Source: a virus
Taxonomy: Duplodnaviria > Caudoviricetes
Direction: 5' to 3' (one strand)
Length of the DNA stretch: 39,763 bases
Virus record (IMG/VR): IMGVR_UViG_3300032248_000908
Location: 1-39,763 of that record
In this document: positions 16,156 through 26,366 of the stretch, piece by piece
Position numbering within the stretch: position 1 is the first letter of the stretch
How the letters are laid out: every line of letters begins with the position of its first letter
The notes under the pieces: generated by a model
What the model was told of the DNA's origin: nothing
Database searches by the model: none
What the model saw: only the letters and a program-made list of their open reading frames with translations
Position numbers and translations under genes: made by a program

Positions 16156-16539
16156 ATGGCGACCTTTGTTACAACTGGAGAAATAGAAACAGGCAATCAC
16201 CTGATACTAGAGCTTCACAGGATAAAAGCGGAGCACTTGAAAGACGAAGAATTTATTCGCAACTCTATGATTAAAGCTGCGCATGCTTCAAAGGCGACCA
16301 TACTACACACTTACTTCCATCATTTCGGTAATGAATACGGAGTCACCGGAATCATTGCTTTATCTGAATCTCATATGTCGATACACACGTGGCCAGAATA
16401 TAATTACGCAGCTGTAGATATATTTCTTTGTGGTTCAGCGGACGTCAACGCAGCAATGGAAAGTCTGTTGGCTTCGCTTAGTTGCACAAATTACAACAGC
16501 AATCCCTTAACAAGAAAAACATATCGAGTTAACACATGA
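16156..16539 (+). CDS. speD: S-adenosylmethionine decarboxylase proenzyme (class 1b)
   Basis: G.HLIL, GVTG...LSESHMSIHTWPE...AAVDIFLCG. Confidence 0.92.
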   Translation: MATFVTTGEIETGNHLILELHRIKAEHLKDEEFIRNSMIKAAHASKATILHTYFHHFGNEYGVTGIIALSESHMSIHTWPEYNYAAVDIFLCGSADVNAAMESLLASLSCTNYNSNPLTRKTYRVNT

Positions 16540-18991: not shown

Positions 18992-19039
18992 TTTTATTTT
19001 TTTATTAATTGGTTTATACTATATTCATAGTTGAGCTAA
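18992..19039 (+). promoter_or_regulatory. Early promoter cassette 1 (degenerate -35 TTTTAT, N17, TATACT, shared leader)
   Basis: TATACT-ATATTCATAGTTGAGCTAA identical to cassettes 2 and 5. Confidence 0.75.
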
Positions 19040-19049
19040 GGCAAAAGAA

Positions 19050-19244
19050 ATGACTCTGAAAGAAATCAAGGCTGAAGTATACGCGCAAGGTTCTTGCGTC
19101 GTCCTACTGCCGAAGCGCACCGCCAAGCGCACGATTGCTGCTCTCCAGCGCGATGGCTACGGTCCTGACTTTATGTTTCGGGATTTGGATGGCAACGAAG
19201 GCTGGAGAGTTTACGGCGAGCCTGACCCGTATATCAACAAGTAA
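19050..19244 (+). CDS. Early hypothetical protein
   Basis: Follows cassette 1; AAGG RBS. Confidence 0.7.
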   Translation: MTLKEIKAEVYAQGSCVVLLPKRTAKRTIAALQRDGYGPDFMFRDLDGNEGWRVYGEPDPYINK

Positions 19245-19254
19245 GGAGAATACT

Positions 19255-19440
19255 ATGAACGACTACCTGTTTGAAGGCGTGCGGCAGCTCAAGGGCATCA
19301 TCGCCGCTTTTCAGAACGAACTCGCTGGACTCTTGTGGGTCAACACGCTTGAGGCACGTAAACGTGAACAGGTGTTGATAACGGCTATCTGCGCCCACAT
19401 GCAGGCGGTCGATAAACTCGAAGCCATGATGGCAGAGTAA
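19255..19440 (+). CDS. Early hypothetical helical protein
   Basis: TAAGGAG RBS places the start at 19255, not 19135. Confidence 0.75.
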   Translation: MNDYLFEGVRQLKGIIAAFQNELAGLLWVNTLEARKREQVLITAICAHMQAVDKLEAMMAE

Positions 19441-19462
19441 GATGTATCATTAAAAATATCGC

Positions 19463-19510
19463 TTGACTTTATTTTTTTATTTTATTATACTATATTCATA
19501 GTTGAGCTAA
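19463..19510 (+). promoter_or_regulatory. Early promoter cassette 2, TTGACT-N17-TATACT + leader
   Basis: Counted directly. Confidence 0.9.
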
Positions 19511-19523
19511 AGAGGAAATGACC

Positions 19524-19739
19524 ATGACCAACCTGACTCGCGAAGAACAAAAAGCCATTCTGCTGCGCCGCTTTCCTGAAGCCGACCGCATCGTCTTCGA
19601 CACTGAATTCAAACAGTGGAATGTAATTACTATCATCGGTGTGGAAGACGAGTACGGCGATATCGAAACCGATATCTTAGCCTACATCCCCGGCACTCGG
19701 AAGTTCAGCTTCGCCGGTCACATCTCTGTCGAAATCTAA
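19524..19739 (+). CDS. Early hypothetical acidic protein
   Basis: GAGGA RBS best spaced to the second ATG (19524). Confidence 0.75.
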   Translation: MTNLTREEQKAILLRRFPEADRIVFDTEFKQWNVITIIGVEDEYGDIETDILAYIPGTRKFSFAGHISVEI

Positions 19740-19749
19740 GGAGAATACT

Positions 19750-19827
19750 ATGGAATACGTGTCTGAATTGATGATTGGGGTTGCGATAGCCGTGTACTGT
19801 GCAGTCTACGTCTTCGGAAACCGATAG
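19750..19827 (+). CDS. 25-aa single-TM peptide (not in ORF track)
   Basis: TAAGGAG RBS; MEYVSELMIGVAIAVYCAVYVFGNR. Confidence 0.7.
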   Translation: MEYVSELMIGVAIAVYCAVYVFGNR

Positions 19828-19836
19828 GAGAACATC

Positions 19837-19956
19837 ATGAGCAAACCGAACATCGTCGCGAAAGACCTGCGCACCCCGAAGTACCGGCAGCGAGTCGTCC
19901 GCGACCGCACCAAATACTCTCGGAAGGGCAAGGGCAAAAAATCCCTTGACTTTTAA
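19837..19956 (+). CDS. 39-aa basic ArfA-like peptide (not in ORF track)
   Basis: AGGAG RBS; MSKPNIVAKDLRTPKYRQRVVRDRTKYSRKGKGKKSLDF. The ORF is well supported; the ArfA relationship is by recalled motif similarity. Confidence 0.6.
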   Translation: MSKPNIVAKDLRTPKYRQRVVRDRTKYSRKGKGKKSLDF

Positions 19957-19995
19957 TTAATATAAAATTATACTATACCTATAGTAACTGAGGAG
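19946..19995 (+). promoter_or_regulatory. Early promoter cassette 3, TTGACT-N17-TATACT
   Basis: Leader variant ATACCTATAGTAACTGAGGAG. Confidence 0.9.
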
Positions 19996-20001
19996 ATGAT
20001 C

Positions 20002-20205
20002 ATGGAAACCATCGCGTACGACTGCGTCGGCTTCAACCACAAGATGTCCCACGAAATGATGAACGATGTGTTCAGCAACCCTGAGAAGTATCTCTCGGTC
20101 GCCTTCTTGGCTATTGGGGCGCACACCGATTTGGTGCCGACCGTGGCTCTCGAGGCTCTCGTCTCGATGCTCCAGGTCGAGCTGCGCGAGCGCGACATCG
20201 CTTAA
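20002..20205 (+). CDS. Early hypothetical protein
   Basis: GAGGAG RBS best spaced to ATG 20002. Confidence 0.75.
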   Translation: METIAYDCVGFNHKMSHEMMNDVFSNPEKYLSVAFLAIGAHTDLVPTVALEALVSMLQVELRERDIA

Positions 20206-20212
20206 AAAGTCC

Positions 20213-20260
20213 TTGACTTTTAAATAATATAAAAGTATACTATACCTATAGTTGAGCTAA
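20213..20260 (+). promoter_or_regulatory. Early promoter cassette 4, TTGACT-N17-TATACT
   Basis: Leader ATACCTATAGTTGAGCTAA. Confidence 0.9.
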
Positions 20261-20272
20261 CGAGGAACTGTG

Positions 20273-20428
20273 ATGAAAAAAGTCTACTCTGTTGTGATTG
20301 ATGCTGACAGCTACTCTTGGACGGTTGGCGTGTTCGACGACCTCGACGAAGCCTACGCCGAGCGCGATGAGATGCAGTACTCGCAGCCCTGCCCAGTGTC
20401 TATCGTCGTTTCTTACGTTGAAGCTTAA
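20273..20428 (+). CDS. 51-aa acidic early protein (not in ORF track)
   Basis: GAGGA RBS; MKKVYSVVIDADSYSWTVGVFDDLDEAYAERDEMQYSQPCPVSIVVSYVEA. Confidence 0.75.
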   Translation: MKKVYSVVIDADSYSWTVGVFDDLDEAYAERDEMQYSQPCPVSIVVSYVEA

Positions 20429-20438
20429 GGAGAACATC

Positions 20439-20726
20439 ATGGAACAATTGTACGTTACAAATTACGTTCTCGAAATCAAACACGCTCTTGCCAACCGAGC
20501 TGCTGACGCCATGAACGTCAGTCGAGACAACCGGAGTGCTATGCAGTTCGTTAACGATGCTGCTGAGACGGTGATTTACGATTGGTTAGAATACCTCGAC
20601 TTCTCTAACCGCGAAGACTGTCTTGAAGTTGTCGCTCTAATCGAGAACGGGGCAACCCTCGGCGAAGACATGGTCGAGGCAGTAGAAAGTCAGATGTACT
20701 TCACCGGAACTATAAACCGTATTTAA
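20439..20726 (+). CDS. Acidic early hypothetical protein
   Basis: TAAGGAG RBS places the start at 20439, not 20298. Confidence 0.75.
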   Translation: MEQLYVTNYVLEIKHALANRAADAMNVSRDNRSAMQFVNDAAETVIYDWLEYLDFSNREDCLEVVALIENGATLGEDMVEAVESQMYFTGTINRI

Positions 20727-20733
20727 AAAATCC

Positions 20734-20781
20734 TTGACTTTATTTATTAAAAATAATATACTATATTCATAGTTGAGCTAA
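20734..20781 (+). promoter_or_regulatory. Early promoter cassette 5, TTGACT-N17-TATACT + leader
   Basis: Counted directly. Confidence 0.9.
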
Positions 20782-20792
20782 AGGAGAAGACC

Positions 20793-21044
20793 ATGAACTA
20801 CCGTAACGAAATCATCGACATGACCATCCGCTATGTCTCCCAGGAATACGATTTGCCAGCCGGTAGCCGCTTCCTGGCCAAGGCGGCTGAGGAAGTGACC
20901 GAGTACTGGTTCGAAGGCGACTTCGAGTTCGACTGCGGTATGGATGCGCAGGAAGCCGTGGGCGACTACGCTCTGGCCGAGCGAGTGATGTCGAAGTACT
21001 TTCAGCTCGAACACGAAGCCAACGTTCGCGGCGCAATGTTTTAA
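20793..21044 (+). CDS. Acidic early hypothetical protein
   Basis: AAGGAG RBS; D/E- and aromatic-rich. Confidence 0.8.
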   Translation: MNYRNEIIDMTIRYVSQEYDLPAGSRFLAKAAEEVTEYWFEGDFEFDCGMDAQEAVGDYALAERVMSKYFQLEHEANVRGAMF

Positions 21045-21054
21045 GGAGAACAAA

Positions 21055-21246
21055 ATGATTATCAAAGCCAAAATTGCAGGATTCCAGTTCGAGACCACTC
21101 TTGACTTGTTCTTTCTGGACAATCCCGGTCTTGACCGAGACAAAGACCTCTTAGCCGAAGAGCTGCGTCGGATGGGCGACGCTGTTCTTTATAACTTTAA
21201 CGACTCTTACGACGTCGCCTGCTTTCTTACTCTTATTGAGGAATAA
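21055..21246 (+). CDS. Acidic early hypothetical protein
   Basis: TAAGGAG RBS. Confidence 0.75.
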   Translation: MIIKAKIAGFQFETTLDLFFLDNPGLDRDKDLLAEELRRMGDAVLYNFNDSYDVACFLTLIEE

Positions 21247-21250
21247 TAAC

Positions 21251-21777: not shown

Positions 21778-22749
21778 ATGGCTCATATGGTTGAAGAAAT
21801 TAATGGTGTTGCTCAGATGGCTTATACCGGCGATGTGCCGTGGCATGGTCTGGGTAAACGTGTTAGCAACGACCTTTCCCCCGAACAGATGCTCGAAGCT
21901 GCTGGTCTTAACTGGGGTGTTGAGAAGGTTCCGCTCTTCGCCGATTATAACGGCAAGCAGATTCGAACTGGAGCTGAAGCTCTGGTCCGCGACCTTGATG
22001 ACAAGGTTCTTACCATTGTAACCGATACCTGGAATCCTTGCCAGAATCGCGATGCGTTCGAGTTCTTTAACGACTTTACCGCTGCTGGCGATATGGAAAT
22101 GCACACTGCTGGTTCGCTCAAAGGTGGTCAGCATGTCTGGGCTCTTGCTAAGATTAAAGAGTCATTCGAACTCTTTGGTGGAGACAAGGTGGACGGTTAC
22201 TTGCTGTTCTCTAATCCTCACCAGTTCGGTAAGAGCATTACCGTTCAGTTCACTCCTATTCGAGTAGTCTGCAACAACACTCTTACGCTGTCTCTCGGTA
22301 CCAAGACCGACAAGATGGTTAAGGTTAATCATCGTCGAGTGTTTGACGGAGACGACGTTAAAGAAACCCTCGGAGTGGCTAAGGACAAGCTTGCCAAGTA
22401 CAAGGAAATGTCTGCCTTCCTCGGTAAGAAGCTCTATACGCCTGCTACGCTTATCGAGTACTTCAATCAGGTCTTCCCCAAGACGTCTGATAAGAAGAAC
22501 GACAAGGACAAGATTGGTGTGCCTCAGTCTCGTGCGGCTGAACTCGCCATGGTTGCTGTTGATGCACAGCCTGGAGCGGAGTTCGCCAAGGGTAGCTGGT
22601 GGCAGGCATACAATGCTGTGACTTACCTGACTGACCATCAGCTCGGTCGTTCTACAGATACTCGTCTGTATAGCGCATGGTATGGCGTTAATCAGACTAA
22701 GAAAGTCCAGGCTCTTAACCTTGCTGTTCAGATGGCGGAGGCTGCATAG
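21778..22749 (+). CDS. DUF932 / TIGR03299 phage-plasmid-like protein
   Basis: MAH.VE, PWHGLG, QN..AF.FF, TAGSL.GG, TPIRVVCNNTL, W.AYNAVT. Confidence 0.9.
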   Translation: MAHMVEEINGVAQMAYTGDVPWHGLGKRVSNDLSPEQMLEAAGLNWGVEKVPLFADYNGKQIRTGAEALVRDLDDKVLTIVTDTWNPCQNRDAFEFFNDFTAAGDMEMHTAGSLKGGQHVWALAKIKESFELFGGDKVDGYLLFSNPHQFGKSITVQFTPIRVVCNNTLTLSLGTKTDKMVKVNHRRVFDGDDVKETLGVAKDKLAKYKEMSAFLGKKLYTPATLIEYFNQVFPKTSDKKNDKDKIGVPQSRAAELAMVAVDAQPGAEFAKGSWWQAYNAVTYLTDHQLGRSTDTRLYSAWYGVNQTKKVQALNLAVQMAEAA

Positions 22750-22787
22750 CCTCCCCTAATTATAACGCTGCAGAGCATAACAACAAC

Positions 22788-22833
22788 ACCCACGACGCCT
22801 CTCTATAGAAGCGCACCAGCGTGGGTTTCTTAA
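22788..22833 (+). promoter_or_regulatory. Bulged stem-loop with T-rich tail in the hps leader
   Basis: ACCCACG/CGTGGGT outer stem, CGCCTCT/AGAAGCG inner stem with one mismatch, CACCAG bulge; a second hairpin GGAGGCT/AGCCTCC at 22737-22754. Confidence 0.5.
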
Positions 22834-22851
22834 TCTTGAGGAAAGTAAATA

Positions 22852-23490
22852 ATGGCATTGATTCAAGCAGCACTCGATACTCTAGACTATGAACAAACAA
22901 TTCGTCTAGCACAGCGCATCTCACCCTATGTAGACATCATTGAACTCGGCACTCCCTGTGTCAAATATAATGGTATTCGTATCGTCGAAACAGTTCACAC
23001 GCTTACAGGTCCAAAGTGTTTAACACTTGCCGATCTTAAGACAATGGATGCTGGCTTATATGAAGCATCTCCATTCTACGAAGCCGGTGCTGATATTGTT
23101 ACCGTTCTTGGTGCAGCTGATGCTGGTACTATTAAGGGTGTAGTTGAAGCGTCTAAGACTACTAAAGCCCAAGCACAAGTTGATCTGATTAATGTAAAGA
23201 ATAAACTAGAAACTGTTGCTCTTGCGTATGAACTTGGCGCTCATATCATTGGTGTACATACTGGGCTAGATCAGCAGGCAAAAGGTCAGACTCCTTTTGA
23301 AGACCTAAAGAAAGTTCAGCAAATGAAAGTCGGTCTAAAGATCTCTGTTGCTGGTGGTATTAACAAAGATACCATTCGCCAAGCAATCGATGCTGGTGCT
23401 GATATTGTTGTAGTAGGTGCAGCAATCTATGGCGCCACTGATCCTGTTCGCGCTGCTGCTGAGATTTGGGAAGCTGTTCAACGTGGCTAA
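22852..23490 (+). CDS. hxlA: 3-hexulose-6-phosphate synthase (RuMP pathway)
   Basis: Q.ALD, ELGTP, DLKTMDAG.YEA, DLINV, GVHTGLDQQA.GQTPF.DL, SVAGGI, VVGAAIYGA.DP; methylotroph-type Hps signature. Confidence 0.95.
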   Translation: MALIQAALDTLDYEQTIRLAQRISPYVDIIELGTPCVKYNGIRIVETVHTLTGPKCLTLADLKTMDAGLYEASPFYEAGADIVTVLGAADAGTIKGVVEASKTTKAQAQVDLINVKNKLETVALAYELGAHIIGVHTGLDQQAKGQTPFEDLKKVQQMKVGLKISVAGGINKDTIRQAIDAGADIVVVGAAIYGATDPVRAAAEIWEAVQRG

Positions 23491-24049
23491 TTATTCTGAT
23501 GTTCTTGATATTTTAAGAGACGAACTGCTCTATACCGAAAAGGAAACATGTCAGCAGCTTATTGATGTACTCATTCATACGATAAGTCGGAAAGAACATT
23601 ATAATGGTGGAAGAGTGTTTATTGCTGCTGCTGGTAGATCTAAGATGGTTGCCAATATGTTTGCAATGCGAATGATGCATTGTGGGCTAAATGTGCAGGT
23701 AGTTGGAGAAACCACTACAACTCAGATAACAAGATTTGATTCGCTTCTTCTTGTTTCTGGTTCGGGTGAGACTAAGCAATTGATCAATTTTGCTGAGAAG
23801 GCAAAGTCGGTTCGTTCTGAAGTGTTATTAGTAACAGCAAATCCAACTTCTACTCTTAGGAATATGGCTGATAAGACTTTCCAGATTGGTCCATCAAGTA
23901 GAGTTCTATCTCCTAATAAAAATCTTCCTCTTGGTAGCAGGTTTGAACTCTCTACTATGATATTCTTTGAGACAGTCATTCTTAATTTTATGGAACAACT
24001 TCAATTAAATGAAGACAATTTAAGAAATTGTCATACTAATTTGGAATAA
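23483..24049 (+). CDS. hxlB: 6-phospho-3-hexuloisomerase (SIS domain)
   Basis: RVFIAAAGRS, FAMRMMH.G, VGETTT, SGSGET, PLGSRFE, terminal HTNLE (canonical HANLE); GTG start overlapping the hps end. Confidence 0.92.
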   Translation: MANYSDVLDILRDELLYTEKETCQQLIDVLIHTISRKEHYNGGRVFIAAAGRSKMVANMFAMRMMHCGLNVQVVGETTTTQITRFDSLLLVSGSGETKQLINFAEKAKSVRSEVLLVTANPTSTLRNMADKTFQIGPSSRVLSPNKNLPLGSRFELSTMIFFETVILNFMEQLQLNEDNLRNCHTNLE

Positions 24050-24056
24050 ATAAATA
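24045..24056 (+). promoter_or_regulatory. Overlapping late promoter variants AATAAATA upstream of tmRNA
   Basis: AATAAATAAATA immediately before the acceptor piece. Confidence 0.55.
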
Positions 24057-24061
24057 GTATT

Positions 24062-24430
24062 GTTGGTATGGTCGTATGAAGTAAAGGGAAGGTATTCTGG
24101 ACGGGAGTGCGATTCTCCCCACCTCCACCAAAAGCATATTGTAAATATGATGCTGTCGAAGCACACTGGTTCAGCAATCAATAAATGTTTCGTGAGTATG
24201 CTTTTGACGGGGGTGACTAGATTCGACAGGGTAAGATACTGATACAGACGACTCGGTAGGCGATGACCGTAAATCAAGCAAAAAAATATAAAAGCCAATG
24301 ATGACTTTTACGGAGATTATGCACTAGCTGCATAATTCTTCTGGGGTTTCGCCAGCTGTCCTTATTATCCAATCAGCTGGCACTTATTTACGGAGTTTGG
24401 CGGTAACTTCTCCGACACCAAAAACCGCAA
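24062..24430 (+). ncRNA. ssrA: Circularly permuted two-piece tmRNA
   Basis: T arm GGGAG-TGCGATT-CTCCC + CACCTCC-A-CCA ending 24130; 78-nt intervening segment; GGGGGTG-ACTAGATTCGAC from 24209 gives a 7-bp acceptor stem with G3:U70; tag GCC 24294-TAA 24335 = ANDDFYGDYALAA. Outer ends approximate. Confidence 0.93.
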
Positions 24431-24445
24431 CCTATAAGGAGCTAT

Positions 24446-24694
24446 ATGCGCATAGACCCACGGTATTCAATTCAGGCAGTGCAACCGACCTATACGGTTC
24501 CTAAAGTAGCAGAGACCAAAGTCGCCGAGATGCAGGTGCAGCATTTTGCAGCCATCATCAATCCTGACCTTTCCGTATCAATTAAGAATATCATTGATGA
24601 CTTCTATACGTATGATCATCTGAACGGCAAGATTGTAATGAAGAAGGTAATCTGCCGAATCAACTCCACCACATTCAAACCAATAGATGCGTAG
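24446..24694 (+). CDS. Hypothetical protein
   Basis: TAAGGAG RBS. Confidence 0.65.
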   Translation: MRIDPRYSIQAVQPTYTVPKVAETKVAEMQVQHFAAIINPDLSVSIKNIIDDFYTYDHLNGKIVMKKVICRINSTTFKPIDA

Positions 24695-26294: not shown

Positions 26295-26366
26295 TTAACG
26301 ATTGGCTATGTACATTGTGACTTCGAAACCAAATCTAACATCTTCAAATGCAGGTGTATTCCACAT
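26295..26366 (-). CDS. pqqA: PQQ precursor peptide PqqA (not in ORF track)
   Basis: Hand translation MWNTPAFEDVRFGFEVTMYIANR; W..P....R.GFEVTMY with the invariant ExxxY; AAGGGGG RBS. Confidence 0.95.
   Translation of the reverse strand: MWNTPAFEDVRFGFEVTMYIANR

Follow-up and report, generated by a model that had tools for sequence, protein, structure and literature searches.

Viral genes annotated as hxlA and hxlB have been listed as auxiliary metabolic genes from freshwater mesocosms (PMC12370912); as a kind, therefore, they are already listed in print. For the T4-like Methylophilaceae phages VP_139 and VP_266, it was proposed that one-carbon auxiliary genes route methylotroph carbon to nucleotides (PMC7678222), and the T4-like methylophage Melnitz carries a permuted ssrA, a gene form reported to be common in aquatic phages (PMC9004378). 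Regarding RNAs, an abiF-motif RNA neutralises AbiF in trans in a manner that depends on its stem structure (PMC12373285), phage RNA antitoxin mimics act against ToxIN, and the cos hairpin of phage sk1 inhibits AbiF (both cited in PMC13064643). Hexulose terms were absent from the main text and five supplements of PMC7674155, and in PMC10904782 and PMC9875498 phage hps or hxl appeared in reference titles only.

Here we describe the hps-phi locus of a virus record that was analysed whole (39.8 kb; hereafter the window), in which a predicted formaldehyde-fixation gene pair is accompanied by a two-piece tmRNA gene and an abiF-type RNA hairpin.

Results

Genomic setting of hps and phi

The window carries T4-like genes for gp32, gp59, gp33, gp2, gp4, baseplate proteins, primase, NrdAB and ThyX, and its replication, neck and baseplate gene sets are of the T4-like type. 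The nucleotide-synthesis genes comprise nrdAB, thyX and a dCMP deaminase gene; speD scored above its cut-off, and a Dps-like ferritin gene was also found. The S-adenosylmethionine decarboxylase gene lies at 16156-16539, between nrdA and nrdB, and in the related loci L012, L013 and L024 speD is found directly 5' of pqqA-hps. The stretch 19000-21250 is GC-richer (47-49%) and contains short ORFs without a known family and repeated intergenic blocks, which are common to the related locus L011 in shuffled order; it is probably an early-gene region. Immediately upstream of the cassette, and outside it, a DUF932/TIGR03299 phage protein is encoded at 21778-22749 (plus strand). Contamination by host chromosome was ruled out, since T4-like genes flank hps-phi on both sides; this bears out an earlier note on this DNA, which had described the pair as bracketed by phage genes. 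The same note had seen no other host metabolic genes, a statement that fails in view of the permuted tmRNA gene after phi, pqqA at 26295-26366, and speD.

The hps-phi pair was also present in six distinct-locus matches of IMG/VR. None of 50,697 GenBank phage records provided an isolated phage with the cassette (best matches at most 41% identical), and neither Hps nor Phi matched a PHROG of its kind. Small shares of the window stretch were contained in 13 RNA runs, and in four RNA libraries contigs of relatives spanned parts of hps, phi and the tmRNA gene; these contigs, with neither a DNA nor a silent control, reveal neither transcription, strand nor level, and we left them out of the evidence. 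A promoter scan of the window yielded 10 sites versus 6.1 expected, with no convincing site ahead of the hairpin.

Identity of the encoded proteins

The hps gene (hxlA; 22852-23490, plus strand, ATG start) encodes a putative 3-hexulose-6-phosphate synthase of 212 residues, as indicated by TIGR03128, its residues and its fold. It is preceded by a Shine-Dalgarno-like element (22838-22845, plus strand), recognised from the sequence, similar in most relatives and paired in the predicted fold. Hps reached 229 bits on TIGR03128 (cut-off 200), versus 110 and 85 bits on two UlaD-type models (cut-offs 250 and 294), and the catalytic set D9, E31, D61, K63, D66 and H136 is present. The discriminating positions were taken from E112, R139 and T169 of KGPDC and from the PDB title of the E112D/R139V/T169A mutant; there, Hps has the HPS-type residues D111, L139 and A167, and two UlaD/SgbH proteins have E, R and T. 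The predicted model is a (beta/alpha)8 TIM barrel (pLDDT 91.8) whose best fold match was HPS 3ajx (TM 0.89), with 3f4w at TM 0.91; since this barrel is common to HPS and KGPDC, the match does not discriminate between them. By score and residues, the window protein is classified as an Hps rather than a UlaD/SgbH protein, with its catalysis predicted. Identity as UlaD/SgbH or another SIS isomerase was ruled out by model scores, residues and tree.

The phi gene (hxlB; 23483-24049, plus strand, GTG start) encodes a putative 6-phospho-3-hexuloisomerase of 188 residues, assigned by TIGR03127 and motifs. Its start overlaps the end of hps by 8 nt, and a junction with the same overlap was found in 14 of the 16 related loci examined, which suggests coupled translation of hps-phi. 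Phi passed TIGR03127 narrowly (163 bits, cut-off 160), and other SIS models gave at most 30 bits. The protein is a single SIS domain with GRS, SGSG and a terminal HxNLE, and its best solved relatives are YckF (1m3s) and MJ1247 (1jeo). At the third residue ahead of Arg-Ser in the GRS loop, Ala replaces the Gly of the cellular pattern; this position is Ala in 51 of 56 close homologues and Gly in all 52 cellular hits (52/52). The Gly-to-Ala change before GRS is a trait common to the phage Phi clade. The 8-nt overlap and all the Hps and Phi motifs quoted in the earlier note were thus found in place.

Ancestry, codon usage and selection

In a tree of 54 rows (48 of 142 rows plus six outgroups), phage Hps and some context-free metagenome proteins formed one clade (86.5/97). 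Its sister was the sampled proteobacterial methylotroph Hps (82.2/94), and both clades joined at 98.7/100 against Bacillota, Actinomycetota, Bacteroidota and UlaD outgroups. The 142-row tree, run in quick mode, gave the same split between phage and cellular sequences, and the Phi tree (53 rows) presented the same picture (96.6/97 and 98.2/97). Phage and metagenome Hps were 70-97% identical to that of the window, followed by a gap to the cellular enzymes; the identity to the sampled proteobacterial methylotroph enzymes was about 60% for Hps and about 45% (33-49%) for Phi. In a genome scan that covered 33 of 64 parts and used the best 80 of 615 matches, the 73 closest genome loci belonged almost entirely to named methylotroph or methanotroph lineages or to unclassified Pseudomonadota, with one labelled Truepera. 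The tree and the nearest named relatives thus agree with the earlier impression that Hps is nearer to proteobacterial methylotrophs than to Bacillus-type enzymes, and Hps does not group with UlaD/SgbH in the tree comparison that had been proposed. These sequence relationships point to an old capture of hps-phi from cells. The phage clades lie beside, not inside, a partly sampled cellular clade, and the trees therefore pick no donor or present host.

Codon usage was as A/T-ending as had been noted: GC3s was 0.26 in hps and 0.23 in phi, below the median of 0.36 for the 27 other window genes (range 0.23-0.51). The long residence that had been read from this does not follow, because cellular hps genes match such low values (73 genes, median 0.40, lowest 0.12; 0.27 in a small-genome Methylophilaceae), which renders codon usage uninformative on residence, and because the allele looks recently exchanged. 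The long history lies in the phage gene pool, and is not demonstrated for this phage lineage.

Across phage copies, the median dN/dS (Nei-Gojobori) was 0.118 for hps (range 0.04-0.25; 130 of 136 pairs usable) and 0.194 for phi (range 0.05-0.29; 75 of 78 pairs usable), figures that are descriptive because the pairs are non-independent through common history and the alleles look mosaic. No pair of either gene exceeded 0.30, so that the comparison proposed in the earlier note gave values far below 1 for both. Both hps and phi are intact in phages and, by these ratios, under purifying selection. Relaxed selection on Phi, which had been offered as an explanation for its divergence, is ruled out by the dN/dS values (at most 0.29 in 75 pairs), and the changes concerned are clade traits.

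A mobile cassette

Downstream of phi we found a circularly permuted (two-piece) tmRNA gene of the betaproteobacterial type (24070-24335, plus strand; ARAGORN and Rfam), with the tag ANDDFYGDYALAA. It scored 142 bits on RF04321 (gathering 47) and 116 bits on RF01850; the acceptor piece precedes the coding piece, and the tag ends in ALAA. The limits given by ARAGORN are 24038-24426, and the gene begins about 20 nt after phi. The spacer of this tmRNA gene (24133-24207, about 75 nt), whose ends are self-complementary, is almost unchanged in distant phages. The tRNA-like part of the tmRNA is 96% identical in L010, and the spacer may be another small RNA. The adjoining stretch 24446-24694 contains an ORF of 82 residues without a family match, which also lies next to the tmRNA gene in L007, L010 and L024. 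The gene for the 23-residue PQQ precursor peptide, pqqA (26295-26366, minus strand; PF08042, 41.8 bits against 21.1), is 2.2 kb from hps-phi, and we saw no further pqq gene in the window. An abiF-type RNA hairpin (22782-22833, plus strand; Rfam, fold and covariation) marks the 5' edge of the shared cassette.

The arrangement was compared in 19 related loci, six viral and 13 metagenomic, some of them near-duplicates, the metagenome loci L013-L025 being classed as phage by gene content and synteny only. In most relatives pqqA is directly 5' of the hairpin and hps: it lies within 300 nt 5' of hps in 16 of the 19, the hairpin likewise in 16 of the 19, and ARAGORN called a permuted tmRNA in 10. In L010 and L022, another conserved leader, which looks structured, replaces pqqA and the hairpin about 260 nt 5' of hps. 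Large nucleotide-sugar clusters, with an RfbH-like aminotransferase, a thiamine-dependent enzyme, epimerases and Gmd, lie just 5' of pqqA in L015, L017, L020, L023 and L300.

L012, L013, L016 and L017 match the window at 88-92% identity over the block 22782-24390 and differ in their flanks. The L012 phage shares 96% of Hps and Phi with the window, versus 60% of gp32, 48% of primase and 40% of gp59, and its NrdA is of another type. Conversely, the syntenic relative L011 is 85% identical in NrdA and 96% in DUF932, versus 72% in Hps and 69% in Phi, and its DNA identity drops from above 88% to 64-79% on entry into hps. A cassette that is alike in the distant L012 and unlike in the close L011 indicates that alleles were exchanged between phages. 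Hairpin, hps, phi and two-piece tmRNA gene, usually with pqqA, thus constitute a mobile cassette of large T4-like phages.

In L234 (155 kb, 81% complete), pqqA, the hairpin, the last 23 codons of phi and the tmRNA gene are found at 1421-1975, and hps is absent; in this deletion allele, which lacks hps and most of phi, the genes are dispensable. Such an allele, retaining its neighbours, is what would be expected if hps-phi were decaying passengers of the tmRNA gene or pqqA. We consider this explanation highly improbable and already largely refuted by dN/dS, which is far below 1 for both genes; moreover, the catalytic residues and the overlap have been kept.

Role of hps-phi during infection

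From RuMP chemistry, Hps would join formaldehyde and ribulose 5-phosphate into hexulose 6-phosphate, and Phi would convert the latter to fructose 6-phosphate. We think it likely (probability about 0.7) that these phages infect RuMP-pathway methylotrophs or methanotrophs and use both enzymes forward, keeping formaldehyde fixation running during infection. Since in RuMP hosts this step is the entry of cell carbon and a main formaldehyde sink, the phage copies could sustain the sugar-phosphate supply for nucleotide synthesis after host transcription declines. PqqA would support a PQQ methanol dehydrogenase upstream of formaldehyde fixation, and because pqqA adjoins hps-phi in most carriers, a methylotroph or methanotroph host is the simplest reading.

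Other markers gave no answer as to the host. The PqqA peptide gives no preference among Methylophilaceae, Methylococcaceae and Methylophaga. The permuted tmRNA type did not exceed the cut-off in two sets of methylotroph genomes (0/5 and 0/5, one genome common to both), and a further methylotroph genome check found a one-piece tmRNA gene. Neither pmoC, searched for without a positive control, nor methanol dehydrogenase was found in five related records, all incomplete.

The two enzymes could also run in reverse, converting fructose 6-phosphate to ribulose 5-phosphate and formaldehyde, a route used in many archaea; they would then provide pentose for nucleotide synthesis, and a methylotroph host would not be required. 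The wealth of nucleotide-synthesis genes in the window, the long divergence of the phage enzymes from the sampled cellular ones and the position of the clade-specific change in Phi, adjoining the GRS motif, are in line with this possibility. However, the nearest named relatives are formaldehyde-assimilating methylotrophs, the tight linkage of pqqA suits a forward reaction that is fed by methanol oxidation, and the reverse route releases formaldehyde, which is toxic; we therefore judge reverse operation to be quite improbable.

The phage carries just the two fixation genes, and we saw no gene for pentose regeneration in the window, as might be expected if the enzymes served for detoxification only, keeping formaldehyde low to shield phage DNA and proteins with no rise in carbon flux; the host could then be a methylotroph or a heterotroph that has a PQQ alcohol dehydrogenase. 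In the same direction, hxlAB occurs on plasmids of non-methylotrophs, once beside a mycothiol-dependent formaldehyde dehydrogenase. Nevertheless, the enzymes from these plasmids reach no more than 44% identity (among the matches listed, 30 of 223) and fall outside the phage-methylotroph clade, and in a RuMP methylotroph detoxification is the same reaction as assimilation. Detoxification alone thus seems unlikely, and we favour forward fixation that feeds phage nucleotide synthesis.

Structure and distribution of the abiF-type hairpin

The hairpin consists of a 7-bp outer stem, a single bulged A, a 3-bp inner stem, a 3' bulge and a U-rich tail. On the Rfam abiF model (RF03085), the window copy scored 24.6 bits, below the gathering value of 37; of 17 viral loci selected for scanning, 13 carried orphan copies that pass, at 38-55 bits. 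The exact inner motif was found in 82 viral stretches, and the stem, which lies outside the search pattern, closed with at least five pairs in 24 of 46 distinct contexts. With a looser pattern, 23 of 64 parts yielded 120 viral stretches, which puts the overall estimate at about 340; 90 of the 120 closed the stem with at least six pairs. In 20 chosen stem-forming copies, with an unfitted alignment, the outer stem was 89.6% paired with 24 double changes (0/500 shuffles); in 48 distinct phage and bacterial copies, in an alignment fitted to the model, 97.7% of the cells were paired, with 61 double changes (0/500 shuffles). The stem covaries strongly.

The Abi_2 profile detected a toxin gene near only 1 of 202 viral loci of both pattern sets, which partly overlap and include 40 loci with flanks of only about 300 nt. 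No Abi_2/AbiF toxin gene was found in the window or in 25 hps loci, and no Abi_2 gene in 30 whole viral records, four of them at least 90% complete. In the order to which Methylophilaceae belong, a model built from phage copies only had matches in 4 of 151 genomes. Intact Abi_2 genes directly follow two of these hairpins; two further copies, both in the same genome, stand before a broken Abi_2-like start, and the fifth hairpin precedes a DUF3800 gene. Three of these five bacterial hairpins reach the Rfam abiF cut-off. Searched by protein, Abi_2 loci were present in 1 of 151 Methylophilaceae genomes and 10 of 101 Methylococcaceae genomes, and the hairpin was located 5' of 6 of 12 Abi_2 loci in these families, one weakly; matching bacterial toxin-RNA pairs are found in L264, L265, L269 and L290. 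Exact-pattern matches numbered eight in 61 Methylophilaceae genomes, and the one inspected was inside an ORF and formed no stem. The DUF3800 case (L267, 482-1551) has an abiF hairpin of 38 bits, above the Rfam cut-off, in front of that gene and not of Abi_2, and DUF3800 may be another RNA-neutralised toxin.

Orphan hairpin loci (window 22782-22833, L316-L435 and L168-L249) belong to unrelated phages. The contexts include the hps leader, several unrelated ORFs, tRNA arrays and spacers inside permuted tmRNA genes; in L220 (1486-1540), and also in L169 and L198, the hairpin is the spacer between the two tmRNA pieces. An hps-specific riboswitch was ruled out, since the hairpin persists after deletion of hps and occurs in unrelated contexts, and the hps neighbourhoods of the cellular loci L026-L164 were without a match, one chance match apart.

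Candidate function of the hairpin

The hairpin is an independent element that likely acts as an RNA. The orphan abiF-type copies, the covarying stem and the stem-dependent neutralisation in trans by abiF RNA would together fit a decoy role, and we tentatively propose, as a candidate function, that the hairpin is an RNA decoy that binds and silences the AbiF nuclease of the host. On the same tentative footing, it could be a stand-alone mimic of the AbiF antitoxin in hundreds of unrelated phages, and so a widespread RNA counter-defence against AbiF, a Cas13 ancestor. The sites that it occupies (gene leaders, tRNA arrays and the excised spacer of two-piece tmRNA genes) would be strongly transcribed, and tRNA-type processing of a permuted tmRNA would free a spacer hairpin as a small RNA. 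The cassette would combine an anti-AbiF hairpin with a formaldehyde-fixation module that is phage-specific and diverged long ago, the two being traded together between phages.

The hairpin is often found 20-45 nt before a start codon and has a U-rich tail, features that would also suit a native phage cis-element (an operator, attenuator or processing signal) that a phage or host protein reads and that AbiF antitoxin RNAs imitate in order to sense infection. A precedent for such sensing is AbiD1, whose translation is switched on by an mRNA-binding phage protein (PMC13064643); in addition, one bacterial copy is 5' of DUF3800 and not of Abi_2. The rarity of Abi_2 in Methylophilaceae (1/151 genomes) agrees with a cis-element and counts against a benefit of the decoy in that host. 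On the other hand, the contexts are unrelated and include tmRNA spacers, where no gene is controlled, the hairpin is kept when hps-phi is deleted, 3 of the 19 loci carry hps without the hairpin, and abiF-motif RNA acts in trans on its toxin (PMC12373285). A cis-element is the main rival and seems to us only somewhat less probable than the decoy, the function that we put forward as a candidate. We did not find this interpretation of orphan phage abiF RNAs in the accessible literature that was searched, and it may be in print.

Discussion

If the enzymes are active, these phages possess the step at which carbon from methanol and methane enters assimilation; genes acting upstream of this step, those for methanol oxidation and pmoC, have already been described from phages. 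Synthetic methylotrophy is known to be limited by formaldehyde fixation, and the separate phage clades of both enzymes, as predicted here, might be candidates for that purpose. More surprising is the orphan abiF-type RNA, which would be a 50-nt candidate for a common phage counter-defence, directed at a type III toxin-antitoxin system about whose triggers and escapes little is known.

The closest listed viral genes resemble those of the window in that K08093 and K08094 are adjacent on one 150-kb freshwater viral contig (PMC12370912). In contrast to the present analysis, the text consulted lists them by automated annotation and contains neither a tree nor a test of selection, nor does it analyse a cassette or the host. 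The Lake Baikal phages VP_139 and VP_266 are, like the window, T4-like and provided with pqqA, but they carry methanol dehydrogenase, and hexulose, hxl and RuMP are absent from the main text of their description (PMC7678222). Cellular HxlA/HxlB from Methylophilaceae, Methylococcaceae and Methylophaga share with the window proteins the fold, catalytic residues, family scores and hps-phi order; the window pair differs by its separate clades, the 8-nt overlap and the Ala for Gly before GRS, and window-type Phi mostly ends in HTNLE, whereas cellular Phi has HANLE. The tmRNA of Melnitz is SAR11-related, whereas that of the window is of the betaproteobacterial type and linked to hps-phi (PMC9004378).

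The hairpin resembles the AbiF type III RNA (RF03085; RCd22, PMC12373285; AbiFr, PMC12737573) in its stem-bulge architecture and conserved letters, and differs from that system by its sub-cut-off Rfam score and the lack of an adjoining toxin gene. The sk1 cos hairpin is said, in the part of PMC13064643 consulted, not to resemble AbiF RNA. An abiF sRNA was annotated without a function in the lytic T4-like cyanophage S-CREM1 (PMC9964418, PMC12197685, as far as their text was available); unlike that sRNA and the mimics of ToxIN, the window-type hairpin recurs in many unrelated phages. Beyond the prior listing of viral hxlA/hxlB, the locus adds phage-specific clades, cassette exchange and, above all, an orphan abiF-type RNA.
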